A stretch of 51,544 nucleotides of DNA from Candidatus Bathyarchaeota archaeon (GTDB lineage: Archaea > Thermoproteota > Bathyarchaeia > Bathyarchaeales > Bathycorpusculaceae), in contig CAVYRJ010000013.1 of the NCBI GenBank assembly GCA_963770935.1, positions 1 to 51,544 on the forward strand. The letters run 5' to 3'. Position 1 is the first letter of the stretch. Every line of letters starts with the position of its first letter. Shown here piece after piece: positions 16,133-44,668 of this stretch. The notes under the pieces were generated by a model. That model had not been told where the DNA came from and did not search any database. It was given only the letters and a program-made list of their open reading frames with translations. Position numbers and translations under genes: made by a program.

Positions 16133-17477
16133 ATGGATGAAAAAACAGCTGTAGAACCAAAAATAATGAACCGTTGGATTATCGTCATAGGCGGCATTCT
16201 AATTCAACTTGCATTAGGAGCAATTTATGCATGGTCTGCATTCACGACCCCTCTGCAAGGAACATCGACAACCCCTAGTCAATTTGCATTCACAAAAATA
16301 GAAACACAAGCAATCTTTAGCGCCGAACTTTTGGTCTTTGCAATCTTTACAATTATTGGTGGCAGACTGCAGGTTAAACATGGTCCAAAGAAAATTGCCG
16401 CAATAGGCGGTGTACTTCTAGGGGTGGGTTACGTTATGGCCAGTTTTACTGGTGCGAGTTTTATAGGCAAACTTATCTTCATCGGCGTTATAGCGGGCGC
16501 AGGAATAGGTTTAGCATACGTTGTTCCTATTGCTACAGGAGTAAAGTGGTTCCCTGATAAGAAGGGATTAGTCAGCGGGACTAGCTGTTGCGGGATTTGG
16601 ATTTGGCGCTTTCATTTGGATACTTATCGCCAACCCACCCAGTATCCTTGGATTTAGCGGACTAATCAGTAAACAACCTGGAGCATTCGCATATACTATC
16701 GCAAATGTTGACAGCGCATTTCTAATTTACGGTGTTGTGTTCCTTGTCCTTGTCCTGGCAGGTTCTCTTGTTATGAAGAATCCTCCTGTAGGTTGGAAAC
16801 TAGCCGGTTGGACCCCTCCACAAGCTCAGCCTGGCAAAAAACTTGGTTTTTCTCTAAAACCAAAAGAGATGCTAAAGTCAAAGAGTTTTTATCTGCTTTG
16901 GATGATGTTCCTTATCGGTGCACTGGCAGGGTTAATGGTGATTGGAAATGTTCAAAACTTCGCCAAGAGTCCCACCGATGGATTCACAATCAACGGCTTT
17001 AGTGTACAGGAAGCAATAGATTTTGCTGTAATCGGTGCGGCTGTTTGTTTGCCAATTTTCAATGGTGCAGGCAGAATTATTTGGGGGCAAGTTTCAGATA
17101 GAGTAGGACGCAGCAAAGCCCTTATCGGTATGTTTGTGTTTCAAGCGGCTATGATGACAATTTTCTTCTTCACTACATCCAATCCCTACCTGTTCTACGT
17201 TATCGCCGCATTGATTGGATTTAACTTCGGAGGAAATTTTGCGCTATTCCCGGTTGCAACGGCTGATTCATTTGGCTCTGAAAACCTTGCGATAAACTAT
17301 GGCTTTATCTTTACTTCCTATGGAATAGGCGGAGTTATAGGTCCACTTCTTGCTGGCTTCGTGCAAGATGCCGGTTTGAGTTTTCTTTATGCTTTCATTC
17401 CCGCGGCAATCATGTGTGCTATCGCGGCGATACTGGGTTTAGTCTACCACAAAATCTGCCAAAAGAAAAGTATCTAG
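16133..17477 (+). CDS. OFA (oxalate:formate antiporter) family MFS transporter, split by a 1-nt insertion at ~16578
   Basis: GAIYAWS, KWFPDKKG; removing one G restores SGLAVAGFGFG and joins 16737..17477 (FNGAGRIIWGQVSDRVGR). Confidence 0.88.
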
Positions 17478-21513: not shown

Positions 21514-22214
21514 ATGAAGTTTGAAACCAAGTTTCAAGAAATAATTTCACGCACTCACGACATAACAAGCTTCAGGTTTACCCGACCTTCTGAACTAGAA
21601 TACAAGCCAGGACAATTTTTCATTATAACTCTAAAGCAAGGTGGTAAAGAACTAAGCAAACACTTTAGCTTCAGTAGCAGCCCTACCGAAAAAGATCACA
21701 TAGAATTCACCAAAAAAATCACGGACCACGAGTTTTCTTTGGCTCTGAAAACTATAAAAGTTGGGGACTGGGCAAGGATCGAGGCGCCATATGGACAATT
21801 TACTTTTGAAGGAGAATACCCAAAAATTGCTTTGCTCGGAGGAGGTATTGGAATAACCCCTTTCATAAGTTATTGTATAAATGCAGCAGACATGGGCTTA
21901 AGCAGCAAAATAACGCTCTTTTACGGATGCCGTACATCAGAAGACATCGCGTTCAGAAAGGAGTTCGAGGACTTGGCTAAGCAAAACAAAAACCTCAAGA
22001 TTAGTCTTAATCGTTAACCAACCTACTCCCGACTGGAATGGAGCAACAGGTATGATCAATGTCTGACATCGTAAAGCAGCAACTACCAGATTACCAAGAA
22101 AACATGTTCTACACATGCGGACCGCCGCCGATGGTTGATGCAATGGAAAAACTTGTTGTAAGCTTGGGGCTACCGAAAGAAAAGTTGAAGAAGGAGCTCT
22201 TTTCAGGTTACTGA
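21514..22214 (+). CDS. FAD/NAD(P)-binding oxidoreductase (ferredoxin-NADP reductase superfamily), indels near 22000 and 22063
   Basis: YKPGQF, FSFSSSP, GGGIGITP; shifted frame continues FYTCGPPPMVDAM...KELFSGY*. Confidence 0.85.
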
Positions 22215-27138: not shown

Positions 27139-28385
27139 TTATGCTTCTTTAACGCTCGGCTCATAAACTTTCCAGAAAACAAAAATGGAAAGAGGTATTG
27201 CTGTTGCCGCCAATAGAAGAAACGGAAGTTGAGGAGAGACAAAAGCGTAAAGTAAACCCACCGCAATCTGCAGAACAGCTTGCATTAGGAACATAAAAAA
27301 CTGTAAGCACCCTGTTACTGTTCCACGTAAACCTCTGGGAACCAAGTCACCCATCAGAACGGTATAGCTATTTAGTTGCAAAAGGTTGCCCAGTCCAAAG
27401 AAGAAGAAAGCTAAAAGTAACATATTAAAATCAGCATTAACAAAAAGAAGCATGCCGGGAACATACAGCAAATAACCCAGTATCAAGAATCGTTTTCTTC
27501 CTAGGACATCCATGCTCAACCCTGCAAGTATGCCCGGGATGGCGATGGTTAGGTATCTGAATGCAACCACAATTGCCCATTGCTCAAGAGACACTTTGAG
27601 GATTGAAGTTGCATAAATAACAAAGTAGGCTTGGCAGCTAACTACCAGCCCATTTATGATTATGATTGCTAAGAAGAGGTTAAAGGCTGATTTGGGAACC
27701 TTTTGCCAAACAGATATTCCTTCTTTTACCGATACAACATATCCGCGGAATGCGTTTTGGATACTGAATCTTGTTTTCTGCGAAGTCGGTGGCAACGTTT
27801 CTTTGAGTCTAAGCCTAAGAATTGATATGGAGAAATACGCAGCAGCGACCATGGTGTATGCAATGCGCATGCCTAAATCGAACTTGAAAGCAGCAACCAA
27901 GTATTGAGCAATAAGCGGTGCAGGCAAGATAATGATGGTTGTGATTACTGATTGGAAACTAAAGCCAGCGCCTCGGTTTTCAGGAGGAAGCGAATCAATA
28001 ACCATTGCCATCAAGGCTGGACCGTAGATGGAACAAACATTCTGCAGAAGTAAGCCGACCAGAATAAACTGCCAGGACGGAGCAAAGATAAAAAACAGAC
28101 TCCCTATAGCTAAACCAAAAGTCATGGTGATAATGAGTCCTCTTCTGCCCATGCTTGTCTGCTAAGTAGCCGCCGGGGAATTGGACAAGCGCGACCGCGA
28201 TGGATCCTGCAAAACCCATGATAGCAATTAGGAATTTGTCTGCTCCTAAGCTTAGGTAGTACAGGCTTGCGTAGGTGTCCGGGATTGGTTGCACGGCAAA
28301 CAGGATAATCCAGCTTAGGGTTATGAGTAGAAAGTTGCCTCTTAAAACGGCTTGATCTCGACGGAAAAGTGCTGAACATCTTCAT
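27139..28385 (-). CDS. MFS transporter, split by indels near 28150 and 28365
   Basis: three overlapping frames join as LRGNFLLITLSW...GGYLADKHGRRGLI...; 12-TM pattern. Confidence 0.85.
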
Positions 28386-28522: not shown

Positions 28523-29896
28523 ATGCAAGGCTCCAACTTGACGGCAAAACCAAGCTTAAAGCACTCAAGATTTCAGCTGTTGCAATCTTTAGTGTTGTAA
28601 TCGTTGAGGTTACTGTGGGCTCACTAGTTAACAGTTTAGCCATTATCAGCGACGGCTTACACGCCTTACTGGACGCACTCACAAGTGTCATGTTGTTCTT
28701 TGCTGTTCGAGCTTCAATGAAACCAGCCGATGAAGAACACACATACGGACATGAAAAATTTGAAACTATCGGGGGATTAATCGGTGGAATAATCCTAATT
28801 GTTGTAGCATGCATAATTTTCTACGAAGCTGTATCAAGATTAATTTCTCCACCTGAGTTTGTCGGCGGCATAGAATACGCCGGGTTCGCAGCTATTGCTT
28901 ACGCACTCTTCGTAGCTTCATTAAGAGTTACTGTCTTCAAGAAAAACCAGCATGTAGAGAGCCAATCTATGAAAGCTGGATTATACGATGCAATCGCCGA
29001 TTTAAGCTCAACTCTCATCGCACTCTTGGGCTTCGCTTTAGCTTTGCTGGGTTACTCTGGTGCAGATGCTTTCGCCTCAATCTTCCTCGGCGCCATGTTG
29101 ACATACTTGAGCATAAAACTGGTTAGGTTCAGCATAATGGAATTAAGCGACACCGCCTCAAAGGAGCTTGTTCAAAAAACAAGAAAAATAATCCTTTCGT
29201 GCGAAGATGTTATGAAAACAGAAAACCTTAAAGTTCGCAAGGTCAGCTCCAAAGTTTTCGTCGATGCCTCCGTTCAAGTTCCAAGCGTTATGAGTTTACA
29301 AGACGCACATTGTTTAGCTTCCAAAATTGAAGCTTGCCTTAAAGATGCCTTCGGCAACGTAGACGCAACGATCCATATTGAACCCTCAGATAAAGGACGC
29401 AAAATGGACCAATTGGTCGAAAAGCTTGCAACCGTTGACGGTGTAAAAGAGGTACATGAAATATCTACCATCTACGTCAGCGGCAAACTCTACATTACCC
29501 TACATGCCTACGTTAACCCTGAATTGTCAGTTGAAGAAGCCCATAAAATCGCTGAAACTATAGAGCAGAGAATGCATAGTGAGATTAAGCCACTTGAAAA
29601 CGTCACAGTACACGTGGAACCCGCAGGTGTTGCAATTCCTGCATCTGGAAGTTAATGAAGCTCAACTTAGAAAAGTCGTTAATGATGTCGCCAAGGGCAT
29701 TGCGGTTAACCTGATGATTAAACGGGTTGTAACTTATGCAGCTGATGGAAAACTTTACATCAACATTGACTGTTGCTTTACTAAGCAGGTTCAGATAAAG
29801 GAAGCTCACAGGATAGCGTCGCTCGTTGAGAAGGAAACTAAAGAACGGTTTGCTAACGCTGTGGTTACGGTTCACATGGAACCAGAATGCCCCTAA
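28523..29896 (+). CDS. cation diffusion facilitator with three C-terminal dimerisation domains; indel near 29647, start uncertain
   Basis: SDGLHALLD, PADEEHTYGHEKFE; three AH...IE...TxHxEP repeats. Confidence 0.88.
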
Positions 29897-30135: not shown

Positions 30136-30926
30136 TTATTTCTTTTTCCTCATTGCGAATACGCCGAAAGCGATCAGTACTATGACTATGACAACGACTA
30201 AGGCAATGATGATTACCATTTCCATTGAGAGGCCGCCAATTGGCCTGCAGGTGTTGATGACTGTCCTACTGGAGTTGGTGTAGTGCTGCCTATTGGTACG
30301 AATACTGGCTGGTAGTTGAATTGTGATGCGTATCCGTGATCGACATTGTAGGGGTTGTCTGTTGGAGTTGGTGTGAATGTGTGTCCGCTGATGCTTCCAA
30401 GGTCGCCTGTAATGATCCAGTTTGAAAATTTCCAGCCACTATCTGGTATTGCGGTGAGATCCACTTTGTCAGCATTGGCTAAAGCATAGGTCCCTGGTGG
30501 TGGGTTCGTGGTTCCGCCAGCGCCTTTCAGAACGACGACAATAGCCGCAGTCTTGAAGTCGGTTACAGGTACTCCGCCTGGCACTTGTTGCAGTACATCG
30601 AATATTGGCTGGACAGCGTAATCTGTGCTCGCGGCAACAGTGAGTGTGTATGGATTATCAGAGACGACATCAGAACCGGTGGCGGTTGCAATTACCCATT
30701 GCACGAAAACATAGCCGTCGAGGGGTGTTGCTGTTAATGTAACACCTGTGCCGGCGTCATAGCTAACGGTTGGTCCAGCGGCGGGGTCTGTTGATCCGCC
30801 TAATGAATCTAAGAGAGTGACACTGCCTTGACCTTGCGCAATTGCGATTGGGCTGATTGATAGCAAAAGTATTGCTGATAGTAGAGTTATTACAAAAATT
30901 TTACTGGTTTTTGCTGAAATATTCAT
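30136..30926 (-). CDS. surface protein with two InlB-B-like repeat domains and a C-terminal TM anchor; indel near 30240
   Basis: signal peptide; VTLTATPLDGYVFVQW and VDLTAIPDSGWKFSNW; shifted frame ends IGGLSMEMVIIIALVVVIVIVLIAFGVFAMRKKK*. Confidence 0.8.
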
Positions 30927-31171: not shown

Positions 31172-33398
31172 GTGTATGGGAAAATGTTGTCTCGCTCGGC
31201 AATAGTTAAACTGAAAGCAATCTTGATCATCGACTTAATTATTATAGGTGCTGCTGCAGGTGCCTACTTTTATCTCCAGGACCAAGGTTTAGTGTCAGGC
31301 GCACCCAAACCAGCCGAGTTCACCCTGACAGATCTTATTGTAAGCCCACTTGAGGCTTACGTGGGGGAAACGGTGCAAATTTCAGTTAACGTGACCAACA
31401 TCGGAGAAGTAGAAGGTAACGAAACGGTAAACCTTGAAATTAACGGAGCGTTGAAAGATACTGCAAATATTACTCTTGCAGGTAACTCCTCAGACATTGT
31501 AGCTTTTGCAGATATTGAAAATATAATTGGGAATTATAATGTTCAAGTTGGAAGTTTGAGTGGAAACTTTACAATTAAAGAGGCACCACCTGAATCAAGC
31601 AAGATAGTTCTATCTGATCTAAGAGTCAACCCGTATGAAGCATGGATTGATGAGCCAGTTAATGTAACTGCGATTGCAAAAAATCCTAGCTTAATTCCAG
31701 ATAAGTTAATGGTAAAGATTACAGTGGATGATATAGCACTAGCATCCCAAGTTGTTGAGTTGGATGCAGGAGCAAGCAAAACTATATCGTTCGTCGTTAA
31801 TGCAACCACCGAAGGAAAACATACTCTCAAAATGAATACTTTAAGCGGTTCATTCATGATTGTTAAAACAGGCTATCACACCCTTACAATTAACCGTTCA
31901 GGCGGTGGAAGCAAATCCGTACCCTTTAATCTAAACGGTCAAGAATACGGAACTCCTTACACAGAACTTGTTCCCGTTGGCGAATACAGAATAAGCATGC
32001 CAAGCCCCTTTAGTGTTGGCACCGGAGTTTTAGAATTTACATCTTGGAACGATGGCGTCCGTACCTCATCAAGATCCTTTACCCTAGATAAAAGGCTGAT
32101 ACTGGTTGCAACCTACACGTTAATCAGCGGATACGCATCCTGCCCCTCGCTCTACATTTGGAATGGCACAGGCTACTCCTATGTGACTGACGTTTCAAAC
32201 TCCGGCTGGCTGGGATACATAGGCTATATGAACGCTGACGGCTCCATCGTGTTTAAAGACGGCAACCCATGGGACTACGTCAAATTGGACAAGAACGCTT
32301 TGGCTACCAAAAACGGCAACTTCGAAATGACGCTTTCTCAGCAATGGGATGAACTGTATTATCTCGACTCAGCACAACTTCTAGTCGTTGACCACCCAAT
32401 AGGCACTGATGTCTACATGTCAATGACTAGCTACCTCAGTGATGGCTCAACCGGAAAAGTTTACACGGTAACTAACGGAAACTTGTTGTCCCCCGTTAGC
32501 GCCACCAACGAGAAAGGCCAAAGCGTCCTATCGCAGCTTTCAACACAAGACGGAGTATTCACGCCCGGCATCAACGGTTATGACAGCTTATGGAACGACA
32601 TTACCTTAAACCAATTGACACTCGACTTAGGCAATCTGACAGGAGCACCACAAGTTAAAGCTTGTCATTACCGGTATGGTTGACTGGGGCTTAGCTGAAC
32701 CATATTACGATTGGATTGATAGCTTCAAGGAGGCGGCGGCGAAAAATCTTGTCTCCGACGGAACCGAAATTACGCCGGCGCCATACATAGAAGTTAAAGC
32801 TGCAAACGGCAGTTGGGTCCGTGTTCAAAAGGACATACCCTTACCTGCAGACTATAGAGCACGCACATACACTGTGGATTTGACTGGAATATTCCCAAAC
32901 GATGCAGCTGACTTCCAAATTAGATTCAACAACTATTGGAACGTGACCTACGATTACATTGGAATAGACATAACGCAACCGCAGGCAATAACCACACAAG
33001 CAATCAAGCCTACGACGGCAACCTTTGAGCAACTCTGGGATACGCTATCTAATTCTTCTGGAGCCTTCACCCGATATGGCGACGTGCTTACGTTATTGCA
33101 GGATGCTGATGACATGTATGTTGTTGGAAGACAAGGCGATCAAGTGAACATGCAATTCTCAACAGGAAACCTTACAGATACAGCTGATGGCATGGAACGT
33201 GACTACTTCTTTGTTGTTGCCTGCTGGTTCAAAGACCCGCCAGGAGCATGGGGATACGGCTTTGACTTCACAGTGGAACCGATGCCTTTTATCGCTATGA
33301 GCGGATTCCCCTATCCAAGCGGAGAAAGCTATCCGTATGACGCAGCGCACTTAGCCTACATACAACAATATAATACCAGAGTAATAACTAATCCATAA
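31172..33398 (+). CDS. N-anchored extracellular protein: two CARDB/Ig domains plus a large C-terminal domain; 1-nt insertion at ~32658
   Basis: N-terminal TM; VSPLEAYVGETVQISVNVTNIGEVEG CARDB; removing one A gives QVKLVITGMVDWG, joining 32676..33398. Confidence 0.82.
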
Positions 33399-33520
33399 CC
33401 ACCATTTTTTTGCTTCAATCTGCTTGAAAAATTAACACAGTGTCCGTGAGAAAATACCTATAAGATTTAAATTACCTACTTCTCATTATTGACAGTAAAA
33501 AATCTCGTGGGGACTCCTGG

Positions 33521-34216
33521 ATATCATTAACTGAAATATCTAATCCATACCTTGGCGCGTTTACAATTGGAGTATTCTACGGATTAGTGGTTTGCACTGC
33601 ATCATGCCTCCCATATATAACCAGTTATATCGCTGGTACAGGCGCCGGCTTCAGCAAAGGCGTTAAGATTACGTTGATTTTCAACTCAGGCAGAATCCTT
33701 GCTTACACTTTAATAGGAGGGTTAATTGGCTTATTTAGCGGACTAATCACGCTGGCTGCAACCGACGCTATTTCGCCCTTTCAAGTCTATGCTTCATTGG
33801 TTTTTGGCATTGTGACATTGGCTATTGGAGCAAGTATTCTTCTGAGAGCACGAAAACCACACGATTGCAATATTCAAAGCGGCATTATGGTTGCCTCGGG
33901 CAAAATTGGCAGGTTCGGGTTTGACTTTGGCGCTTTTTCGCTTGGCCTAACTAGAGGATTAATTATTTGTCCGCCTTTGATTACACTTCTTGTGGTTTAT
34001 GCGCTACCTTTCTCTAACCCAATCGGAAGCATGACTCTGGCTATGTTGTTTGGTCTAGGAACCACGGTGTCGCCGATATTGGTGCTAGGCGGAGTTACGG
34101 GTTGGCTACTCAACAAGGCGCCTCTTTTTCGCAAGTGGATTTCAATAACTGGTGGCGTCGTGCTGATAGGACTTGGAATAATTACAATAGTCAGTTCGAT
34201 GATTCAATTACCTTAA
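33521..34216 (+). CDS. DsbD_2/TauE-like six-TM membrane protein with CxxxC and CPP motifs
   Basis: GLVVCTASCLPYI, FNSGRILAY, LIICPPL, LFGLGT; frame is open upstream of the 33587 call, start uncertain. Confidence 0.8.
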   Translation: MSLTEISNPYLGAFTIGVFYGLVVCTASCLPYITSYIAGTGAGFSKGVKITLIFNSGRILAYTLIGGLIGLFSGLITLAATDAISPFQVYASLVFGIVTLAIGASILLRARKPHDCNIQSGIMVASGKIGRFGFDFGAFSLGLTRGLIICPPLITLLVVYALPFSNPIGSMTLAMLFGLGTTVSPILVLGGVTGWLLNKAPLFRKWISITGGVVLIGLGIITIVSSMIQLP

Positions 34217-34230
34217 ATGGCTGAAAAGAA

Positions 34231-35232
34231 ATGGATTGGAATATAATTGGAGACCTATTGAGACTTACAGTTCTCGGGGGGTTAGGGTTAGCAGGGATAG
34301 TAGCCATTTTGATTTGGAAGAAGAATATGGCGTCGCGAGTTACTTTTGTCCGATTTGTTATTCAGGCGATTTCTTTTACAGCCATATTCTACATATTTAC
34401 TTATACAATTCCCCTGCTATACGTGTTGATAATTCTTTTGGGGATTACTCTATTTATAGGGAGATTTTTTTGCGGTTGGCTGTGCCCATTCGCCTTAGTA
34501 ATGGACATAGAAAGCGCTGTTAGAAAAGCCTTCAAGAAACGTTATCGAATCATACCTGATAGACTGAACATAAGCCTTCACCGATTGAGATTTGTTATAT
34601 TATTGTTTTTCCTGTTTACTCCATTCGTATTGTGGTTTTTGGAGCCCCCACCTAACATTGATTTCGCAGTATTGGAGGCACAACTTTTGGCGGGTCCATT
34701 CCGCGCCTACAGCGTAATATTAGCGCCCCTCATACCATTAGTGGTATCCTGGACAACTGCTCCCCTAATAATTAACGGAGTGAATTTCAGTTATCCTTAT
34801 GTTCAAGACATTATACTTTGGGCAGGAAAAGACATTGGTCAAGTAATAAGTGTCGTATTTGTCGGTTTGACGCTCGTTGGCTCCTTCTTTATCCGCCGTT
34901 CGTGGTGCCGGTTCTGCCCTACTGGCGTATCGTTGGCCGTTGTAAATAGATTTAAGGGTTTTAAGTGGGCTCCCCTGCTGCATATAGACAAAGATGAAGA
35001 GAAATGCACCAAATGCGGAGTCTGCAAAAGAGTTTGCCCTGTCCAAGTTAACGAAGTATATGAGCAGAAGGGCGGTAAAATAAAAACCTCTCAATGTATG
35101 CTGTGTATACGATGCGTTGAAATGTGCCCATATGAAGGCACGTTAAAAGTAAAGTTTGGTAGTAAGTCAATGTTCGAGTCAAGGAACTGGTTGGAACAAC
35201 CAAAGACAGAAGAGGAAGAGAGAACGAAATGA
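34231..35232 (+). CDS. membrane-bound 4Fe-4S binding protein (NapH/MauN-like)
   Basis: GRFFCGWLCP, RSWCRFCP, CTKCGVCKRVCP, CMLCIRCVEMCP; 4-5 TMs. Confidence 0.9.
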   Translation: MDWNIIGDLLRLTVLGGLGLAGIVAILIWKKNMASRVTFVRFVIQAISFTAIFYIFTYTIPLLYVLIILLGITLFIGRFFCGWLCPFALVMDIESAVRKAFKKRYRIIPDRLNISLHRLRFVILLFFLFTPFVLWFLEPPPNIDFAVLEAQLLAGPFRAYSVILAPLIPLVVSWTTAPLIINGVNFSYPYVQDIILWAGKDIGQVISVVFVGLTLVGSFFIRRSWCRFCPTGVSLAVVNRFKGFKWAPLLHIDKDEEKCTKCGVCKRVCPVQVNEVYEQKGGKIKTSQCMLCIRCVEMCPYEGTLKVKFGSKSMFESRNWLEQPKTEEEERTK

Positions 35233-36557
35233 ACGAAACCGTTGCAAAAAAATACATGCCTGAAGTATCCAGAAAAGAAATTGAAGAACTTAAAACCACC
35301 GTGAAAGCAGCCTCCCTAAAAATAATGGCAGATAACATTGAACGCATGAAAAAAGCTGACCCCCACCGCCCGCAAGCAATGAAGTACTTCGATGACATTT
35401 CTAACCTGTTTGGGCAACGCCAACAGGAAATTCAGGCAGAGAAAGAAAAAGGAAAAAAAGTCATCGGTTACTTGTGCCTTTTCGCACCCACCGAACTGAT
35501 TTTAGCCGCAGATGCCATTCCGGTAAGAGTGAACTCTGGTTGGTATGACACCTCCAAGTTAGGTGACAGGGTAGTGCCAGTGGAGGTTTGCCCAGTTATC
35601 CGCTCAACTATCGGCGCCAAAATGATTGAACTCTCCCCGTTCCTCGAGCAAAGCGACGCATTAATCAGCGTTCTAACCTGCGACGGCATGACAAAACTCA
35701 GCGAAATTCTAAGTGATTATAAGACAATTTGGGGAATGAACGTACCTCGAATAAAAGACTCAACCCAGTCGCTGCGTTTTTGGAACGACGAAATAAAACA
35801 GATGAAAACACAGATCGAACAATTCACCGGCAACAAGATAACTCGCAAAAACCTAAAAGAAGCCATCGAAACAAGCCACAGAGCAACCAAAGCTTTTCGC
35901 CGCTTACAAGAACTACGTAAAGGCAACCCAGTCATTATGGGCAGAGATGCCATGCTGGTAAACCAAGCCTACCAATGGGATGACAAGAAACGTTGGACAG
36001 AAAAAACTGAAGCCTTATGCGATGAACTCGAAGCGAGAGCGCAACGGAAAGATTGGGTTTGCCCTCCAGATACACCAAGAGTAATGGTTACAGGCACACC
36101 AATGTTTTGGCCAGACAATTGGAAACTTCCTAGCTTGGTCGAAGAAAGCAGTCCTCAAGGCATCATCGTAGCCGACGAACAATGCTCAGGCGAACGAATC
36201 CTCAACGACCCCGTCGGTGTCGACGAATGGTCTATGGATGACATGTTAAACGCCATTGGTGAACGTTACTTGATGGCTTCCACTTGCCCTTGCTTCACTA
36301 GCAAAGACGGCAACGAAGACCGAATAAACTGGCTTCTAACCAAAGTTAAAGACTGGAAGATTCAAGGAGTTATCTACTATGTGGTCCGAGGCTGCATGCT
36401 TTACGCTATGGAATATACTCGGGTCAAAAAAGCGCTCGACAAAATCAATGTTCCAGTGTATTACCTTGATACCGAATACACTAGGGAAGATGTTGGGCAA
36501 ATGAAGACTCGTGTTGAAGCTTTCCTTGAGATGTTAACGGCAAGAGTTGACATTTAA
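35229..36557 (+). CDS. 2-hydroxyacyl-CoA dehydratase (HGD-D) family protein, double-cubane reductase-like
   Basis: GYLCLFAPTELI, VCPVIRS, TCDG, PRVMVTGTP, EQCSG, TCPCF, GCMLY, GQMKTRVEAFLEML. Confidence 0.85.
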   Translation: MNETVAKKYMPEVSRKEIEELKTTVKAASLKIMADNIERMKKADPHRPQAMKYFDDISNLFGQRQQEIQAEKEKGKKVIGYLCLFAPTELILAADAIPVRVNSGWYDTSKLGDRVVPVEVCPVIRSTIGAKMIELSPFLEQSDALISVLTCDGMTKLSEILSDYKTIWGMNVPRIKDSTQSLRFWNDEIKQMKTQIEQFTGNKITRKNLKEAIETSHRATKAFRRLQELRKGNPVIMGRDAMLVNQAYQWDDKKRWTEKTEALCDELEARAQRKDWVCPPDTPRVMVTGTPMFWPDNWKLPSLVEESSPQGIIVADEQCSGERILNDPVGVDEWSMDDMLNAIGERYLMASTCPCFTSKDGNEDRINWLLTKVKDWKIQGVIYYVVRGCMLYAMEYTRVKKALDKINVPVYYLDTEYTREDVGQMKTRVEAFLEMLTARVDI

Positions 36558-36558
36558 T

Positions 36559-37344
36559 ATGATAACCATCGGAATGGACCTGGGGACACAAAGGGTACAA
36601 GTAGTAATAGTAAAAGACGGCTGCGTAATTGCAAGAACCACAGCGTTCTCGGGGTTCGACCCCACCAAAGCTGCAGAACAAGCAGTAGATGAAGCCCTAA
36701 AAATAGCCAACCTAAAACTCTCAGATATACACCATTTTGCCGCAACAGGTTCAGCCATGGACATGGCGCCATATGCAAACAGCAAAGTCAGCATGATGAG
36801 CGCAGACGCAAAAGCAGGAGTCTATCTTGTTCCTAAAGCCCGAACAATCATAGATATCGGAGCTGAAGAAGCAAGAGCCGTAAAATGCGACGAGAAAGGA
36901 GTAATGGCAGATTTTGTCCTTAACGAACGCTGTGCAGCTGGCGCTGGCGCATTCATTGAAGCCATGGCAAGGGCACTTGAAGTCAAGATGGAAGATATGG
37001 GTCCACTAGCGCTTAAGGCAGAACGGGCAAGCCCCATAAACGCTTCCTGTGTCATCTTCGGCGAGTCCGATGTAGTTTCCCTTATTCACCGCCAAGAATC
37101 CAAACCTGAAATTGCACGTGCAGTATATGATGCGATGGCTGACCGAGTCTCATCAATGATCCACCGCTTAGGAATAAATCCCGAAGTAATTCTGGTGGGG
37201 GGCGTCGCCAAAGACCCCGGGTTCGTAGCATCCCTAAACCGAAAACTTGGTTTAACTGTAACGATTCCAGAATACCCCGAGTATGTTGGAGCATTGGGTG
37301 CAGCGTTAATAGCTGCTACACGTGCCAAGGAGACACAGAAATGA
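36559..37344 (+). CDS. ASKHA ATPase activase, BzdP/BcrD-like subunit
   Basis: GMDLG, DIGAEEARAV, NERCAAGAG, ASCVIFGESD; lacks GYGR. Confidence 0.88.
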   Translation: MITIGMDLGTQRVQVVIVKDGCVIARTTAFSGFDPTKAAEQAVDEALKIANLKLSDIHHFAATGSAMDMAPYANSKVSMMSADAKAGVYLVPKARTIIDIGAEEARAVKCDEKGVMADFVLNERCAAGAGAFIEAMARALEVKMEDMGPLALKAERASPINASCVIFGESDVVSLIHRQESKPEIARAVYDAMADRVSSMIHRLGINPEVILVGGVAKDPGFVASLNRKLGLTVTIPEYPEYVGALGAALIAATRAKETQK

Positions 37345-38252
37345 CTCCTACCCAACCGGTTGCCAAAATGGTGGAGTTCTGGCGTTGGCAGGAATACCAC
37401 CGAGTAATGCCCAACATAAAATGGACAAACAAAGACATTATCACAGCAGGCGTTGACGTTGGCTCAGTTGGTTCCAAAGCCGCCATAATGGTAAACGGCC
37501 AAGCCTATAGCTGGGGCATTACCCGCACAGGTTCTAATAGTCCTGAAAGCGCCAACAAAGCACTTGACTACGCCTTAGAAGGAACAGGGCTACAAGTAAG
37601 CGACCTCAAATATATCGTCGGCACAGGCTACGGACGCGTCAACGTGCCCATGGCGAACAAAGCCATAACCGAAATCGCCTGCCACGCAAAAGGCGCCAAC
37701 TACATCTGGGGACCAAGAGTCAGAACCGTCCTCGACGTCGGCGGACAAGACATCAAAGCAATACGCATCGACGAAACAGGCAGAGTCGTCTCCTTTCTCA
37801 TGAACGACAAATGTGCCGCCGGAACAGGCAGAGGAATGGAAGTCTTCGCGGACCTGCTACAAATTCCCATCGAACAAATCGGCGAAATCTCGCTTAAAGT
37901 CGAAAAAGAACCAGAACCCGTAAGCTGCACATGCGTTGCCTTTGCCAAAACCGAAGCCATGGGTTTATTGCGTAAGGGCTGGTCTAAGGAAAAAGTTTTG
38001 GCGGCTTATACTAGGGCTATGGCTGTCCGCATGGCTAACTTAATCAACAGAGTTGGCCTCGAGAAGGAACTTGTCGTTACTGGAGGACAATCAAAAAACA
38101 TCGGCATCGTCAGCAGAATCGAAACTATTCTTGGCGTCAAATGCCTCCCTATGCCTCAATGGCGAGAAGGCGGGCTAGATCCCATGATTGCCGGCGCATT
38201 GGGCGCTGCTTTGCTGGCCAAAGCGTTGTATGACAAATCTCAAAGGGGATAG
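37341..38252 (+). CDS. ASKHA ATPase activase, BzdQ/BcrA-like subunit
   Basis: N-terminal EFWRWQE extension, GVDVGS, GTGYGR, EIACHAKG, NDKCAAGTG, CTCVAFA. Confidence 0.88.
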   Translation: MTPTQPVAKMVEFWRWQEYHRVMPNIKWTNKDIITAGVDVGSVGSKAAIMVNGQAYSWGITRTGSNSPESANKALDYALEGTGLQVSDLKYIVGTGYGRVNVPMANKAITEIACHAKGANYIWGPRVRTVLDVGGQDIKAIRIDETGRVVSFLMNDKCAAGTGRGMEVFADLLQIPIEQIGEISLKVEKEPEPVSCTCVAFAKTEAMGLLRKGWSKEKVLAAYTRAMAVRMANLINRVGLEKELVVTGGQSKNIGIVSRIETILGVKCLPMPQWREGGLDPMIAGALGAALLAKALYDKSQRG

Positions 38253-38262
38253 GAGACTTTTC

Positions 38263-38556
38263 TTGATCACGCATTATGGCTATTGCGATGGTTCAGGCGA
38301 ATACTACATAATTATCGACTCGGACAAGTGTAGTGGCTGTAGCAAATGCGTCCAAAAATGCCCTCAAAAAGCGCTTCGAGTCGAAACCGAGTTCATTGAC
38401 TTAGAAGACAAAACTGTGGCAGCGGTCACGGAAGAACACTGCAAAAAAATAAAGTACACTTGCGCATCGTGCAATCCAGAAAACAACCTTACACCGTGCG
38501 TTTTGATTTGCGAAGCAAGAGCGATTAAATGCGTTTGGAACCCATCTAAAAGTTAA
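38263..38556 (+). CDS. ferredoxin-like protein
   Basis: YGYCDGSGEYYIIIDSDKCSGCSKCVQKCP and CASC...PCVLIC; AGGAG RBS before TTG 38263. Confidence 0.85.
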   Translation: MITHYGYCDGSGEYYIIIDSDKCSGCSKCVQKCPQKALRVETEFIDLEDKTVAAVTEEHCKKIKYTCASCNPENNLTPCVLICEARAIKCVWNPSKS

Positions 38557-38718: not shown

Positions 38719-39309
38719 TTGTCAGACAGTGGGGATAGAAGTTTGACAAAGAATCCGCAATCAAGAGATGACGCACTTGAGGCACTAGACTTCATAGTAA
38801 ACGTCCTCAAAGAACATGAAAAAGATTTAGACAAACTCATTGGCGAATTAGCCACAGTTACAGAGCAAATGGGGGACACTGGCGAGTTAAACAGCAAAGT
38901 TGAAAAAGTAGAAGGGAAAATTGACGCACTCCAAAAAGAAGTAGCAAACCTGATAGGTGCCTTATCTGGTGCGCCAAAACAATCATTGGCGGGGACGGGG
39001 GTGGTTGCTTTTGAGCAGCCAAGTATTTTGCCTTCTTCATCTGTTGAGAGTTTGCGGAATGGTCCGTCGATTGTTTTGCACTGCAAACAGTGGGAAGATT
39101 TCCAAATTTTAGCAGCAAAAACTCAAACGTTATCTTTCAGCTATAAAGAAGAGGAAAAAGTCTTTCAAGCGAACGCACTCAAGGGCAACCAAATAATAAC
39201 CTACAGCGGAGTACTACCGAAACTTTCGGATATCCTTAAGATGTGGCTCTCAAAGCATCTTGATGTTCCCGAACGCAGCATTCTTGAGGGTGCTTTAGCA
39301 GTAGGCTGA
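38719..39309 (+). CDS. conserved hypothetical protein with N-terminal coiled coil
   Basis: 196-aa ORF with heptad pattern. Confidence 0.75.
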   Translation: MSDSGDRSLTKNPQSRDDALEALDFIVNVLKEHEKDLDKLIGELATVTEQMGDTGELNSKVEKVEGKIDALQKEVANLIGALSGAPKQSLAGTGVVAFEQPSILPSSSVESLRNGPSIVLHCKQWEDFQILAAKTQTLSFSYKEEEKVFQANALKGNQIITYSGVLPKLSDILKMWLSKHLDVPERSILEGALAVG

Positions 39310-39747: not shown

Positions 39748-40716
39748 TTAGGTTGGCTCGCATTTCTGCAGGAGTTTTTGCCAGCGTTCGTCGGTTGCTT
39801 GTTGGATCTCATTGATTATGTGTGAGTTTTGCGGTGTAAACAAGTGTCTGAACCTGCCTTGTCCAACAAAATAATCTTTCACGGGCTTCTTTTTCTGGGG
39901 TGCCAACGCAATTACTTTGCTCGGTATAGATAATTGTCGTTTGCCGTTAATTGCTTCCCAGATTGGAAACACGCAGGATTCAACGGAGAGTTTGCTATAT
40001 TCCATGGTTTTTCCAGGTTCGCTTCTCCATCCACGTGGACAGGGCGCAAACACATGTAGAAATGCTGGTCCCTCAACTTCCAGGCCTTTGCGTACTTTTG
40101 TAAGCAGGTCTTTCCAGTAGTATGGTGTTGCGGTTGCTACGTATTGCATATCGTGGGCTAACATGATTTCTGTTATGGGTTTCTTCTTCTCCAGTTTACC
40201 AGGCATTACTGAGCCGGCAGGAGTTGTTGTGGTTGCCGCGCCAGTTGGAGTTCCGCCGCTTCGTTGGATTCCGGTGTTCATGTAGCCTTCGTTGTCGTAG
40301 AGTACAAACAAGAAATCGTGTCCACGTTCAACTGCACCCGATAGCGCTTGCAAACCGATGTCGTAGGTTCCGCCGTCGCCAGCCAACGCGATGATGTCGA
40401 TATGTTCCTGCTTGACTTTTCCTTTTTTGCGCATAGCCTTTAGTGCGGCATCAATACCTGAAGCGTTCGCGGCAGCATTTTCAAAAGCAGTATGCAGCCA
40501 AGGCAGAGCCCAAGATGTGTAGGGATAAATTGACGAGACTACTTCCATACAGCCTGTTGCTTCAGTTACTATCGTTGGTCCCCTGGTAGCCTTCATTATT
40601 AAGCGAAGTACAGTGGCTGGTCCGCATCCTGCGCATGCACGGTGTCCTGAAAGGAAAAGGTCTGGTTTTGATGCAATGTCTTTGGCTGTGAATTTCCATT
40701 CTTGTGTTGTTGTCAA
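39748..40716 (-). CDS. porB: pyruvate/2-oxoacid:ferredoxin oxidoreductase beta subunit
   Basis: GHRACAGCG, GDGGTYDIG...YDNEGYMNTG TPP motif, APCPRGW. Confidence 0.93.
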   Translation of the reverse strand: MTTTQEWKFTAKDIASKPDLFLSGHRACAGCGPATVLRLIMKATRGPTIVTEATGCMEVVSSIYPYTSWALPWLHTAFENAAANASGIDAALKAMRKKGKVKQEHIDIIALAGDGGTYDIGLQALSGAVERGHDFLFVLYDNEGYMNTGIQRSGGTPTGAATTTTPAGSVMPGKLEKKKPITEIMLAHDMQYVATATPYYWKDLLTKVRKGLEVEGPAFLHVFAPCPRGWRSEPGKTMEYSKLSVESCVFPIWEAINGKRQLSIPSKVIALAPQKKKPVKDYFVGQGRFRHLFTPQNSHIINEIQQATDERWQKLLQKCEPT

Positions 40717-40730
40717 GATGTTTTCCTCCT

Positions 40731-41963
40731 TTATTCCCTTAATCCGAAATAATTGATTTGATTTTCAACGTGACCAGTTTTAGCCACAAGCAAAAGGTCT
40801 TCGAAAATACCTCTAAACGCAATTGGATTTGTGTCTCTTCCGCCTAACCCGTAAATGTAGTTAACTGTTGGCGGATGTGTCTTTTCATCGTATAGCGCAT
40901 GTCTAACTTCATGGTATACTGCGCCTCCGAACCCGCCAAAGCTCATGCTTTTATCCATAACAGCTATTGCTTTAGCATTCTTAAGCGCATTTCGAATCTC
41001 TTCGACGGGTAGCGGTCTAAACGTCCGTAATCGTAGGAGCCCGGCTTTGATTCCTTCTTGCCTCAATTCGTCTATTACCACTTTAAGCGTACCAGCTGTT
41101 GATCCGACACATACTACTGCGACTTCAGCGTCGTCAAGTTTGTACAATTCAATAAGTCCATTACCGTAGCTTCTGCCGCTTATCTGTGCGAATTCACTGT
41201 TGATTTCTTGGATTTTCTTTAACGCGTTCTTCATTGCTTCATCTTGTTGTCTTTTGAACTCAAAATAGTAGTTCTGCAAAGCAATTGGCCCCATTGTCAT
41301 TGGATTGTCTGGGTCAAGTTTGAAAGGCACCATTTTGCCTTCATGCGTTTGCACGTTTGGCAGTTGTCGTTCTCCAACGAACGTTTTCACCATTTGATCT
41401 GACAGAGTATCGACTCTTTCAAGGGTGTGGCTTAAAGTGAAACCGTCTAATCCAACAATTATAGGCAAAGAAACACCCACATCTTCAGCGATTTTGAAGG
41501 CTTGAAGGATCGAGTCGTAGGCTTCTTGTGCATTTTCAACATAAATATGAATCCATCCGCTATCACGTTCAGCCATGCTGTCCGATTGGTCACCATGAAT
41601 GTTAAGCGGGGAAGATAGAGCCCTGTTAGCAACAGCCATGACTACTGGCGCTCGAGAACCAGAAGTCACAGTTAACATTTCATGCATCAACGCCAAGCCA
41701 GCTGAAGCACTTGCGGTGAATGTTCTTGCGCCAGTAGCTGACGCTGCAAGGCAAGCAGTGATAGCGCTGTGTTCAGATTCGGTACAAACGAATTCTGTTT
41801 GCACCTCACCGTTGGCGACGTATTCGCTGTATTTCTCAACTATGATTGTTTGTGGAGTAATTGGGTAGGCAGCAACGACGTCAACATCTGATTGTTTAAC
41901 TGCGTAAGCAACTGCTTCGTCGCCGTTTAGTGCCAAGATTTCCTGTTTAACTGTTTTTTGCAT
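40731..41963 (-). CDS. porA: pyruvate/2-oxoacid:ferredoxin oxidoreductase alpha subunit
   Basis: AAYPITPQT, ESEHSA, ANRALSSP, YGLGGRD. Confidence 0.93.
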   Translation of the reverse strand: MQKTVKQEILALNGDEAVAYAVKQSDVDVVAAYPITPQTIIVEKYSEYVANGEVQTEFVCTESEHSAITACLAASATGARTFTASASAGLALMHEMLTVTSGSRAPVVMAVANRALSSPLNIHGDQSDSMAERDSGWIHIYVENAQEAYDSILQAFKIAEDVGVSLPIIVGLDGFTLSHTLERVDTLSDQMVKTFVGERQLPNVQTHEGKMVPFKLDPDNPMTMGPIALQNYYFEFKRQQDEAMKNALKKIQEINSEFAQISGRSYGNGLIELYKLDDAEVAVVCVGSTAGTLKVVIDELRQEGIKAGLLRLRTFRPLPVEEIRNALKNAKAIAVMDKSMSFGGFGGAVYHEVRHALYDEKTHPPTVNYIYGLGGRDTNPIAFRGIFEDLLLVAKTGHVENQINYFGLRE

Positions 41964-41969
41964 ATGTTT

Positions 41970-42254
41970 TTACTCCTGTTCCATTTTCATAGTTATCGCT
42001 TTAGTTGGGCATTCGTTGGCACATATTCCGCAGCCTTTACAGAAGCCAAAGTCAAAATCGATTTTGCCCAACTCGGGACGCCAGTTTATTGCTCCTTCAG
42101 GGCAAAACATAACACAAGTTAAGCATACCGTGCATTTCTCTATGTCTCGAACTGGCATGTACGTCTTCCAGTCACCAGTCATGAATCCAACGCTGGATTT
42201 TGAGCAGACTCCGCCTAAAGATATTTCTTTCCAAGTTTTTTCTTTACTACTCAT
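41970..42254 (-). CDS. porD: pyruvate/2-oxoacid:ferredoxin oxidoreductase delta subunit
   Basis: TGDWK, two CxxCxxCxxxCP motifs. Confidence 0.92.
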   Translation of the reverse strand: MSSKEKTWKEISLGGVCSKSSVGFMTGDWKTYMPVRDIEKCTVCLTCVMFCPEGAINWRPELGKIDFDFGFCKGCGICANECPTKAITMKMEQE

Positions 42255-42814
42255 TCTACCTTTGCCTCCTTATAGGCTTCTTTGATGACTGAAAAGTTTT
42301 TCTCAGCCAAGTCAGGTCTGAAACGTCCCTTCAAAGTTTTTTCAATACCCTCCAAAGACACTATTCCAGTAGCCTTAGCGACAACTCCCAACAGCGCCGT
42401 GTTAGTAATTGGAGCACCCAAGACTCTTAGGGCAATCTCAGTGGCTGGAACCGTCCAGACTTTGCCTTTAGTCACCCGAAGGTTTTCTTTCAAAACTGAA
42501 GGTTCTTCACTTGAATTAATAATTAAAACGTCTTCATCCTGATTTAATCCAGCAGTAACAGGTACACTTTTCAGCAAAGTATTATCTAAAACGATCACAA
42601 CGTCTGGATCATAGATTGCACAGTGTAACCGTATTGGTTCAGTGCTGATTCTGGTGAAGGCAGTCACTGGCGCACCCATTCTCTCTGGCCCAAACTCTGG
42701 AAAAGATTGAATGTACTTGCCCTCATCAAGGGCTGTCCTTGCCAAAAGTTCGCTGGCTGTCCAAGCGCCTTGCCCGCCTCTTCCATGCCACCTAAACTCC
42801 ACCATAGTTTTCAA
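42251..42814 (-). CDS. porG: pyruvate/2-oxoacid:ferredoxin oxidoreductase gamma subunit
   Basis: HGRGGQG, FPEFGPERMGAPV; start placed at TTG 42814. Confidence 0.92.
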   Translation of the reverse strand: MKTMVEFRWHGRGGQGAWTASELLARTALDEGKYIQSFPEFGPERMGAPVTAFTRISTEPIRLHCAIYDPDVVIVLDNTLLKSVPVTAGLNQDEDVLIINSSEEPSVLKENLRVTKGKVWTVPATEIALRVLGAPITNTALLGVVAKATGIVSLEGIEKTLKGRFRPDLAEKNFSVIKEAYKEAKVE

Positions 42815-43269
42815 AGCAAATCCCTTCTCTTCTCTAAAGTCTTTTCTGAGTAAAATGTCGAATACCTTGATATACATTTTTCTACTAAAACGCAAAAACA
42901 CTCCAATTTAATGTAAAAAGATCCCCAATTAACGTTGACATAAATATCTTTGTTTTAATGTCTTTTATTTGAAAAAAGATTCGTTTTGCATATCTCTGAA
43001 CTGAGAGGGCAATAGAGGTATATCTTTATTTTGAGACTAAGATTTTCCCCAACGAGTTGTTTTAAGGGAATATTGAGCAGTAGGAGTAAAAGCAATTGGC
43101 AGATGTGCTTTTAACGGTCAGATAGAACTTTGATGAGTATTATAATAATAACTAGTTTCTAGGGTTAGGTATATGTGCCCCTCCAAATTTAGTTCCTGAA
43201 TGGCTCTACAGTTACCTTTTCTTTCCTCCACTACAAACTAGCAGCGGTCACCCTTGGACTGCATCGCAC

Positions 43270-43648: not shown

Positions 43649-44668
43649 GGGGTGTGCAGAATTTAAGCTGCTTCCCAATCATGTTCTTGTATGGAAGCCT
43701 GTGAAGTTGTCAGGCTTTTCGTCAACAAAGCAATCGTTTCTGTGGAACCTAAAAGACGGGGAAATCCAGGATACGGACGCCTAAGAGCGCTCAGAGTTCT
43801 CGTATACGCAAGACTAAAAGGATTAGAGAACGACACGCGCATAGTTGAACATCTAAAGAAGCATTCGGATGCTGCTAGAACAATTGGTTTGTGCAAAATA
43901 CCCGATAGAACTACAGTTGGAAGATGGTGGAGACGCTACCTTAGCCTTCTTGAAGAAACTTTTAAGAAGATCTCTGGGATGCTTCAGCTCGTGTCGCCAA
44001 CAACTTTTTTAATTGTTGACTCAACGCCGCTGGCGGATCTCTACGACATGGAAGCAGGATGGGGTCACACAAGCAGGGGAAAATTCAGAGGATTCAAACT
44101 TCACGCAGCTGTAAACCAACTGGGATTGCCTCTAAGAGCAGTTGTCACGCCAGGGAACCGTTATGACTCACCGTTTCTTCCCGGGCTCATTGAAGATTTG
44201 GAGGCAGATTACGTTTTAGCTGACGCGGGCTACGACTCGAAGACAAACTACAGAGCCGTCAAGGAAATTGATGCTAAGCCGGTTATTGCTTCTAACCCTA
44301 GACGAGGGAAACGCAAGAAGACAAAACATGCTAAATTCTTGAATACTAGGCGTTATGTGGTTGAGCAGTTTAACGGGCACATTAAAGCTAACGTTTTGAA
44401 GCAATGCTGGGTAAGGCCAAGGGGTTTGGTGAAGAAGGCGTCGATGGTGACGGCTGGGCTTATAAGTTACGATGCAGAAGCAATCAAATCTTTGCTACTT
44501 GACGAATCGAGCTTGAAGTGCGTGAGCAAGTACTGGGCTTGACCCAATAGTTTAACGGTTATGGCGCCTGCAAGACACCCAACCAATGGCTTTTCAGGGT
44601 TCCAGCCCAAGACCTGCTCAATAGATTAATAGGAAACAAAACTATAAAAAACGAATTGTGCACAGGTC
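43649..44668 (+). mobile_element. insertion sequence, ~1020 bp, IS5/IS4-clan
   Basis: imperfect TIRs GGGGTGTGCAGAATT / reverse complement GACCTGTGCACAATT; TA on both flanks. Confidence 0.8.
43691..44542 (+). CDS. DDE transposase (DDE_Tnp_1-like)
   Basis: LIVDST, GFKLHAAV, VLADAGYDS, RYVVEQFNGHIK. Confidence 0.92.
   Translation: MEACEVVRLFVNKAIVSVEPKRRGNPGYGRLRALRVLVYARLKGLENDTRIVEHLKKHSDAARTIGLCKIPDRTTVGRWWRRYLSLLEETFKKISGMLQLVSPTTFLIVDSTPLADLYDMEAGWGHTSRGKFRGFKLHAAVNQLGLPLRAVVTPGNRYDSPFLPGLIEDLEADYVLADAGYDSKTNYRAVKEIDAKPVIASNPRRGKRKKTKHAKFLNTRRYVVEQFNGHIKANVLKQCWVRPRGLVKKASMVTAGLISYDAEAIKSLLLDESSLKCVSKYWA

Follow-up and report, generated by a model that had tools for sequence, protein, structure and literature searches.

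The stretch analysed here (the window) is contig CAVYRJ010000013.1, 51,544 nt of Candidatus Bathyarchaeota archaeon, which forms contig C13 of a 1.98-Mb genome (G000) that is 91% complete. Positions 31172 to 38556 of its forward strand hold eight open reading frames (ORFs), listed at 31172-32683, 32676-33398, 33587-34216, 34231-35232, 35229-36557, 36547/36559-37344, 37341-38252 and 38188-38556. They represent seven genes encoding, in this order, a surface protein, a DsbD_2-family membrane protein, a NapH-like membrane polyferredoxin, an HGD-D protein of the double-cubane cluster protein (DCCP) type, two activase subunits (ActA and ActB) and a ferredoxin, the last six being tightly packed. Family assignments were based on Pfam and NCBIfam profile scores of the window proteins and on the curated cut-offs. 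The operon is real and conserved, and encodes a DCCP-type reductase with a Bzd-type, presumably heterodimeric booster, fixed beside membrane proteins. The features of the locus are as follows.

31172..33398, + strand: surface protein gene (Pfam CARDB, 34.6 bits), split into 31172-32683 and 32676-33398
33405..33472, + strand: T7 run (33405-33411) and TTTAAAT box (33466-33472), read from the sequence
33521..34216, + strand: DsbD_2-family membrane protein (Pfam DsbD_2, 72.1 bits; cut-off 24.9)
34231..35232, + strand: NapH-like membrane polyferredoxin (Fer4_5 twice, 47.6 bits; Fer4_10; dicluster domain)
35229..36557, + strand: DCCP of a divergent subfamily (HGD-D, 318 bits; NF040772, 343.7 bits)
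36559..37344, + strand: ActA, BzdP-type activase subunit (BcrAD_BadFG; TIGR00241, 201.8 bits)
37341..38252, + strand: ActB, BzdQ-type activase subunit (BcrAD_BadFG; TIGR03192, 358.2 bits)
38263..38556, + strand: small ferredoxin (Pfam Fer4, 31.4 bits)

An earlier note on this DNA had described seven co-oriented genes with ATGA overlaps at 35229 and 37341 and gaps of 1-14 bp, and these junctions were confirmed in the sequence. The stop codon of the DsbD_2 gene (TAA, 34214-34216) is followed after 14 nt by the ATG of the NapH-like gene at 34231, the stop of which overlaps the DCCP start in AAATGAACG at 35229. The DCCP stop (TAA, 36555-36557) lies 1 nt from the ActA ATG at 36559, and the ActA stop overlaps the ActB start in AAATGACTC at 37341. 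For the ferredoxin, the TTG at 38263, located behind a GGAG, is the most likely start and the ATG at 38230 the alternative, the listed start at 38188 not being favoured. The listed start of the DsbD_2 gene is GTG 33587; its orthologues begin 22 codons upstream at an ATG (MSLIPEISNPY...), and the corresponding codon of the window is ATA 33521.

The best model for the HGD-D protein was the double-cubane model NF040772 (343.7 bits; cut-off 350). Scores with BzdN (97.3; cut-off 453.8), HadC (92.8; 700), BcrC (63.5; 421.15), HadB (28.4; 750) and BzdO (28.1; 448.6) were lower. Its matches among solved structures were 7YYL (E 3.7e-80), 6ENO (E 5.2e-80; residues 44-436, 273 bits) and BzdN (8S02_B, E 3.8e-23). 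A search for family representatives returned 242 clusters at E ≤ 1e-30, and a tree of 99 rows was calculated, P0162, P0184, P0225, P0236 and P0265 having been dropped for missing ligand cysteines. In this tree the Bathyarchaeia proteins form one clade with 100% support in the Shimodaira–Hasegawa-like approximate likelihood ratio test (SH-aLRT), on a branch of 0.4, nested among DCCP-family representatives. The nearest relatives of the clade (P0127, P0123, P0124 and P0125; support 80-94) are 42-45% identical to the window protein; the cluster names of the nearest relatives outside Bathyarchaeia are generic, apart from one Omnitrophota label. The separation from BzdN/O, which the earlier note had proposed to check by phylogeny, is borne out by the scores (344 against 97 bits) and by the fully supported clade inside the DCCP family, and together these support the classification of the HGD-D protein as DCCP-type. 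A 2-hydroxyacyl-CoA dehydratase was also considered and rejected on the basis of the single HGD-D subunit and of the HadC and HadB scores.

According to the paper that classifies these proteins (PMC7317905), DCCPs have a motif of seven cysteines, of which six ligate the [8Fe-9S] cluster and Cys94 is only adjacent to it. The six ligands align with 6ENO as C83, C121, C151, C319, C353 and C389 and are invariant in 77 rows (the window and 76 orthologues), with a spacing that fits CX19CX18-19CX29CX166-170CX32-34CX32C, given a 3-residue insert. Asn102, within RVNSG, stands where DCCP has the cysteine of GLCGG, which we equated with Cys94 via N111 of the published numbering, with an offset of one from our count. 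Asn occupies this position in 72 of the 77 rows, the other 5 having Ser. The protein therefore has six of the seven motif cysteines that had been attributed to it, the second motif position being Asn102, and a check of ligand conservation at RVNSG found that this change touches a non-ligand position and that all six cluster ligands are kept. The same source describes the seventh conserved cysteine as a mark of classes I and II, class III being without Cys94; by our own count, this non-ligand cysteine is absent in 31 of 96 family representatives. The window DCCP also has the N-terminal extension when aligned to DCCPCh, a feature that the paper links to narrow channels and small substrates (PMC7317905).

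The activase genes had been read as BzdP/Q-type, and profile scores, sequence identity and phylogeny agree with this. ActB scored 358.2 bits with TIGR03192 (BzdQ) over profile positions 9-292 of 293 (cut-off 380.2), has MbdQ (9GAI_D, E 1e-56) as its best solved relative, and combines canonical ATP-binding motifs (72 rows) with a BzdQ-like N-terminal extension. ActA, which is 30% identical to ActB, matched TIGR00241 (201.8 bits) and the solved structures of HadI (173 bits), MbdQ (158 bits) and MbdP (104 bits). Searching 401 genomes of the phylum with ActA (E ≤ 1e-40) gave 48 matches, 25 of them with at least 64% identity and eight with 49-54%. Among the former are G320 and G449, two genomes from beyond the class of the window. 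Of the ActA matches listed, most are accompanied, at a distance of about 100 nt, by a second match of the ActB type. Four of the matching loci were retrieved: L171 (G077, same order), L172 (G124), L173 (G377, same phylum) and L174 (G320).

L171 (G077:C24:24500-32500) and L173 (G377:C6:9000-18000) are BzdN-BzdO-P-Q-ferredoxin clusters, each with an activase in the P position and a ferredoxin of 94 amino acids; upstream of these genes, L171 also encodes a Had-like dehydrogenase. Their BzdO proteins pass the cut-off of 449 (548 bits in L171, 583 in L173), while BzdN (442 and 388 bits; cut-off 454) and BzdQ (377 and 369 bits; cut-off 380) fall under theirs in both clusters. L172, compared by BLAST only, has ORFs of the same sizes. 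Unlike the lineage of the window, those of L171 and L173 may really reduce aromatic CoA esters. Across L171-L173, identity to the window is 47-51% between ActA and the P-position protein, 61-64% between ActB and BzdQ and 47-57% between the ferredoxins, and the window DCCP is 29% identical to archaeal BzdN. In a tree of activases (40 rows), the ActA-type proteins share a clade with those in the BzdP position, and the ActB-type proteins share another with BzdQ, each with 100% SH-aLRT support. L174 carries the whole operon, with DsbD_2, a 441-aa NapH-like protein, DCCP (333 bits), ActA, ActB and ferredoxin. Judged by these comparisons, the P-Q-ferredoxin module serves either BzdN/BzdO or DCCP plus membrane proteins in related archaea, in keeping with an earlier reading of the locus as a hybrid, which now takes the form of a Bzd-type activase and ferredoxin module combined with a DCCP-type subunit. 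The ferredoxin has one canonical CxxCxxCxxxCP motif and a second, spaced-out cysteine group.

ActA keeps both cysteines that bridge the [4Fe-4S] cluster (NERCAAG and NASCVIF) and has several altered motifs, DxGGQDxK reading DIGAEEAR, TGYGR reading TGSAM, SE[LI]xCHAxG reading SMMSADAKAG and GSTxxK reading GTQRVQ. Across 77 rows, the altered columns vary little or not at all. In the published structure of the DCCP reductase (DCCP-R), S9-N11 and Q92-D94 are the segments that hold the three phosphates, and the remodelling of ActA falls in these two phosphate-binding loops. Archaeal BzdP-position proteins carry DVGAEEGR and the metagenome relative L093 has DVGAEEAR, giving a shared DxGAEExR loop. 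The idea that the altered ATP loop is unique to this operon was therefore rejected, and since the archaeal BzdP-position proteins share the loop, the remodelled site is a conserved trait of the P lineage, not decay. From these motifs, ActA would bind or hydrolyse ATP poorly. The nearest DCCP relatives outside Bathyarchaeia (L086, L087, L090 and L091) also have two activase genes; their first activase has a different deviant loop, D[AI]GGQG[VL]R, and their activases fall outside the BzdP and BzdQ clades of the activase tree, so that this pair may represent a second, independent origin of an asymmetric activase pair.

With the Bzd-type class I benzoyl-CoA reductase BzdNOPQ (8S02) the operon shares a homologous P-Q-ferredoxin module, including the DxGAEExR loop of the archaeal clusters, and BzdN, too, carries a double cubane. 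It differs in its DCCP-type HGD-D protein, in the lack of a BzdO-type subunit in the operon or the genome, and in that membrane proteins take the place of the downstream ring-pathway genes. With DCCP and DCCP-R of Carboxydothermus hydrogenoformans (6ENO, 7YYL) it has in common the HGD-D fold family, the six ligand cysteines, the N-terminal extension and adjacent genes for ASKHA-type, [4Fe-4S]-bridged ATPases. In contrast to that system, two different BzdP/Q-type activase genes are found instead of one homodimeric DCCP-R, a dedicated ferredoxin is added, and the genes are fixed beside those of the NapH-like and DsbD_2 proteins; the window DCCP itself belongs to a separate major clade, has Asn for the non-ligand Cys94 and matches 6ENO with 273 bits, compared with 513 bits for the other paralogue of the genome. 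This second DCCP (L005:7342-8640, - strand, in G000:C10:2000-18000) is canonical (NF040772, 503 bits) and falls in the other major clade. No activase gene adjoins it and no NapH gene is nearby; its neighbours are SelD (split in two ORFs), MobB, a gene resembling DsrE/TusD and a LysR regulator, for which the top-scoring model, at 61 bits and under its cut-off, is 'selenium metabolism-associated'. This neighbourhood recalls the association between DCCP and selenium put forward in a preprint by Haft.

Gene order was surveyed in 80 related genome loci with a DCCP of at least 60% identity; these are kin, so the counts are not independent. Both activases follow the DCCP gene in 73/73 genome loci and in 28/28 metagenome orthologue loci, and the ferredoxin lies downstream in 68 of 70 genome loci. 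A NapH-like gene is found directly upstream in 63/77 and DsbD_2 within 1.5 kb upstream in 67/76; 55/76 have both, and at least one of the two is present in 75/76, so the membrane genes are conserved with DCCP, as the neighbourhood survey suggested by the earlier note was meant to establish. The surface gene is upstream in 47 of 67 loci. The outer flanks (a CDF transporter and the pyruvate:ferredoxin oxidoreductase (Por) genes) vary across the related loci and the core is constant. DCCP together with activases recurs in all 80 of the 80 related genome loci, an arrangement far beyond chance. The operon DCCP (at least 65% identity) occurs in 39 of 301 genomes of the class sample, G000 included, which belong to three families of one order.

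More distant loci were sought in metagenome contigs, the query being an alignment of the closest representatives from outside Bathyarchaeia, which yielded 33 loci with a DCCP 28-46% identical to that of the window. Where at least 1.1 kb of upstream DNA was available, a NapH-like gene lay directly upstream on the same strand in 15 of 24 loci, two of these genes being confirmed by NCBIfam. Downstream, 18 loci had enough DNA, and two activases were found in four, one in seven and none in seven. The adjacency of NapH-like and DCCP genes also occurs in another Bathyarchaeia family (G059, L169; DCCP 47% identical) and in another class (L174). Two contigs titled Methanocella sp. (L057) and Limnocylindrales bacterium (L085) carry the whole operon, with DCCPs 87% and 73% identical; binning errors are a more likely explanation for these than gene transfer. 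As to expression, only a single metatranscriptome run contained as many as 8% of the sampled words, and its short contigs fall within the surface gene, at the NapH/DCCP junction and in ActB. They are identical to the window across that junction and in ActB, which is weak evidence, with DNA carry-over possible and coverage too sparse for an operon transcript.

The DsbD_2 protein exceeds the Pfam cut-off of its family and, like CcdA and other members, has conserved cysteines in the first and in a later helix; unlike these, it has extra cysteines, with a CxxxC in the first helix, a CPP in a helix further on and, in most cases, a CxC loop (cysteine columns, 65 rows). C26, C30 and C151 (orthologue numbering), which lie inside helices, are invariant in 31 orthologue rows, and one loop cysteine is nearly invariant. 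The protein scored 29.8 bits with the ArsG-family model, far under the cut-off of 200. A phmmer search of PDB gave nothing below E 0.69, and a fold model with a mean predicted local distance difference test (pLDDT) score of 69 gave no Foldseek match at E ≤ 0.001, the best PDB row being a weak one to CcdA (5VKV; template modelling (TM) score 0.38, E 0.28). The cysteine pattern would suit a CcdA-like electron shuttle working through thiols or, alternatively, a channel that conducts thiophilic metals or metalloids, and we take it to resemble that of MerT- and ArsP-type transporters.

The NapH-like protein has about five to six hydrophobic segments, CX3CP motifs at C81/C85 and C226/C229 and a C-terminal 2x[4Fe-4S] domain, and all 12 of its cysteines are invariant in 57 rows. 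It shares with the NapH/NosH/MauN polyferredoxins the two CX3CP motifs after membrane segments and the C-terminal 2x[4Fe-4S] domain, and differs from them in scoring far under the family cut-off (73.4 bits with TIGR02163; cut-off 213). No Nap, Nos or Mau partner genes are present at the locus, nor are there Nap or Mau genes among the window proteins. A gene of the MqnA type for menaquinone synthesis was not found in the 91%-complete genome, which makes quinol oxidation by the NapH-like protein doubtful, and quinol potentials are far too high for reducing an activase cluster. The NapH-like protein is thus unlikely to feed quinol electrons into the system and would more likely act as a docking or relay partner. 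Three further NapH-like (Fer4_5) genes are encoded in the genome (C8:~29300, C16:~20430 and C17:~68000; L166-L168), none of them beside a DCCP gene; around them lie split Amt transporter genes, hypotheticals and, behind one of the three, a NosD-like fragment, which give no functional hint. A limited literature search found no report linking NapH-like proteins to double-cubane proteins.

Searches of the 91%-complete genome for the components of a benzoyl-CoA pathway agreed with the earlier statement that the operon has only one HGD-D subunit, and showed no partner subunit encoded elsewhere. Only two HGD-D matches were obtained in the genome, both DCCP-type, and the best genome-wide score with the BzdO model was 20.6 bits (cut-off 448.6). 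The ring hydrolase Oah (TIGR03200) had no match in the genome, the best match to benzoate-CoA ligase (TIGR02262) reached 284 bits, under the cut-off of 375, and no ring-pathway genes lie downstream of the operon, so that the reported lack of adjacent ring-cleavage genes stands. The genome has only two activase genes, both in the operon.

These data lead us to propose, with a probability of roughly 0.6, that the operon encodes an ATP-driven, ferredoxin-fed, low-potential reductase of two modules located at the membrane, which would act on a small, non-CoA and probably inorganic or metal(loid) substrate. The first module, ActA, ActB and ferredoxin, is the one that activates electrons in the Bzd-type reductases of archaea. 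Its ferredoxin, for which the pyruvate:ferredoxin oxidoreductase encoded nearby is one possible reductant, would pass its electron to a [4Fe-4S] cluster bridging an ActA/ActB heterodimer, and ATP turnover, because of the remodelled ActA site probably for the most part at the canonical ActB site, would push the electron to a much lower potential. This follows the activase family as described in the literature, in which ATP drives the reduced [4Fe-4S] cluster bridging the activase dimer to reduce an acceptor cluster. In the second module a single DCCP would replace BzdN and BzdO, most likely as a homodimer in which each subunit holds an [8Fe-9S] double cubane that accepts the boosted electrons; published work describes DCCP as a homodimer in which both double cubanes are reached from the activase cluster. 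The NapH-like polyferredoxin, translationally coupled to the DCCP gene, would serve for membrane docking and electron relay, and the Cys-lined DsbD_2 protein would carry either reducing equivalents or a small, thiophilic substrate from one side of the membrane to the other. The predicted outcome is that a small non-CoA substrate becomes reduced at the membrane or close to it.

Several points weigh against this proposal. Among the related loci, 14 of 77 have no NapH-like gene and 9 of 76 have no DsbD_2 gene, the three other NapH-like genes of the genome stand in unrelated contexts, and we infer binding of the NapH-like and DsbD_2 proteins to the reductase from gene context. The window's own DsbD_2 and surface genes show irregularities of start or frame, and the DCCP score lies just under the NCBI curated cut-off, though its model is still the best. 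The substrate class is the weakest link and amounts to a guess, because no DCCP has a known physiological role or substrate (PMC7317905).

A further reading, rather unlikely, keeps the same components and assigns them differently. In BzdNOPQ the double cubane of BzdN is described as an electron store that feeds BzdO. By analogy, the double cubane of the window DCCP might be non-catalytic, an ATP-charged store passing very-low-potential electrons to the NapH-like protein, which would replace BzdO, with the chemistry taking place at or across the membrane with DsbD_2. Examples of such chemistry could be the reductive capture or release of a metal or metalloid, or the reduction of an extracytoplasmic acceptor.

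It is also unlikely, in our view, that the system is a soluble cytoplasmic one, with the NapH-like, DsbD_2 and surface proteins as neighbours by shared descent that have no functional link to it. The 80 genome loci belong mostly to a single order of a single class, and their synteny may therefore be inherited, but within these loci the outer flanks vary while the core stays. The individual absences of NapH or DsbD_2, the further NapH-like genes in other contexts and the canonical DCCP paralogue that has no such gene nearby would all suit the lack of a functional link; the overlap of the NapH stop with the DCCP start would not, and neither would NapH-like genes directly upstream of DCCPs that are only 28-46% identical to that of the window, nor the recurrence of the adjacency in another family and another class.

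That ActA and ActB each form a homodimer, serving the operon DCCP and the canonical C10 DCCP, respectively or otherwise, is improbable. The genome does have exactly two DCCP-type genes for exactly two activase genes, the C10 DCCP has no adjoining activase, and the known DCCP reductase is a homodimer. However, a second DCCP-type match was found in only 9 of the 39 genomes with the operon DCCP, yet both activases are present in 73/73 loci, which makes two homodimers unlikely. The same P/Q pairing occurs in BzdNO clusters, and the bacterial models use a heterodimeric BzdPQ. An ActA homodimer would, moreover, carry two remodelled phosphate loops, and the ActA and ActB genes overlap by ATGA.

The least probable alternative is an ordinary class I benzoyl-CoA reductase ('BcrACD') that dearomatises benzoyl-CoA and is simply incomplete here, with a partner subunit that is unassembled or encoded elsewhere. 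Source annotations name the HGD-D protein BcrC/BadD/HgdB, and a 2025 review places benzoyl-CoA reductase among the aromatic-degradation genes of Bathyarchaeia (PMC12694404). For Bathyarchaeum tardum, a 'BcrACD' cluster without BcrB is reported in PMC10477458; we infer that these genes are the same operon. Even with a truly Bzd-type activase pair and ferredoxin and a genome of 91% completeness, this option is very improbable, given an HGD-D protein that scores 97 bits with BzdN against 344 with DCCP and is only 29% identical to archaeal BzdN, a genome with no BzdO/BcrB-type match, no Oah and a benzoate-CoA ligase under the cut-off, a second HGD-D gene within the operon in 0/80 related genome loci, the different appearance of the true BzdN-BzdO-P-Q-ferredoxin clusters of related archaea, and the growth inhibition of B. 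tardum by benzoate reported in PMC10477458. The operon, going by its sequence, does not encode a benzoyl-CoA reductase.

In anoxic sediments and soils, few archaea are as abundant as Bathyarchaeia, and it is routine to interpret the genes of this operon as benzoyl-CoA reductase and hence as a sign of anaerobic aromatic degradation, a reading without support in the sequence evidence. The conserved context of a Bzd-type booster, a NapH-like protein and a Cys-lined membrane protein provides testable hypotheses on the site and substrate of very-low-potential reductases. The booster shared by BzdNO and DCCP in related archaea is a clean natural case of module exchange in ATP-driven reductases, in which the remodelled ATP site of the P subunit is a conserved feature. 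Should the double cubane act as a store, the operon would represent a new kind of membrane-bound, ATP-boosted reductase that arose by swapping the acceptor module of benzoyl-CoA reductase.

The surface protein had been described as one gene product of the set. In the window, the gene consists of two overlapping ORFs and, with 47/67 loci, it is a less constant upstream neighbour. ORFs 31172-32683 and 32676-33398 correspond to a single ORF of about 745 amino acids in 45 of 50 related loci, which indicates a 1-nt frameshift near 32660 in the window. Read from an intact orthologue, the protein has an N-terminal membrane anchor (one hydrophobic segment, residues 10-28), CARDB repeats and a long all-beta C-terminal region. 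The second ORF (32676-33398) matches no family, and searches of Pfam (E up to 1) and the ESM Atlas with the surface protein gave only CARDB and Bathyarchaeota hypothetical clusters. The C-terminal 511 residues of the orthologue in L023 were folded (pLDDT 76, all-beta), and a Foldseek comparison with PDB gave no clear match, only rows with TM scores of 0.10-0.23 to glycosidases, a capsid and other beta-sandwich proteins.

The T7 run directly follows the stop of the surface gene, and the TTTAAAT box lies 49 nt before the DsbD_2 start position. These elements could be an archaeal terminator and promoter, and because they follow it, the surface gene may be a separate transcription unit. A promoter and terminator scan of a bacterial type, unsuited to archaea, gave counts at the level of shuffled sequence.

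Across the assembly, many genes are split into neighbouring ORFs in differing frames, which suggests indel errors of the assembly and not true pseudogenes. Besides the surface protein, this affects, among others, MFS transporters, a reductase of the FNR-like kind, two ammonium transporters and SelD (window 16133-17477, 27139-28152 and 21514-22017; L166:2251-5040; L005:6241-7261). Upstream of the operon, a CDF cation-efflux transporter gene (28615-29655, + strand) and a gene for an InlB-B-repeat (Flg_new_2) protein (30213-30926, - strand) are syntenic in about half of the related genome loci. Downstream, a coiled-coil protein of 196 amino acids that belongs to no family (38719-39309, + strand) recurs in many related loci at distances of +3.4 to +10 kb. 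The genes for PorB, PorA and the gamma subunit of pyruvate:ferredoxin oxidoreductase lie just downstream of the operon (39748-42901, - strand), an adjacency kept in a minority of related loci, and a DDE transposase gene (DDE_Tnp_1, DUF772) is located at 43691-44542 on the + strand.

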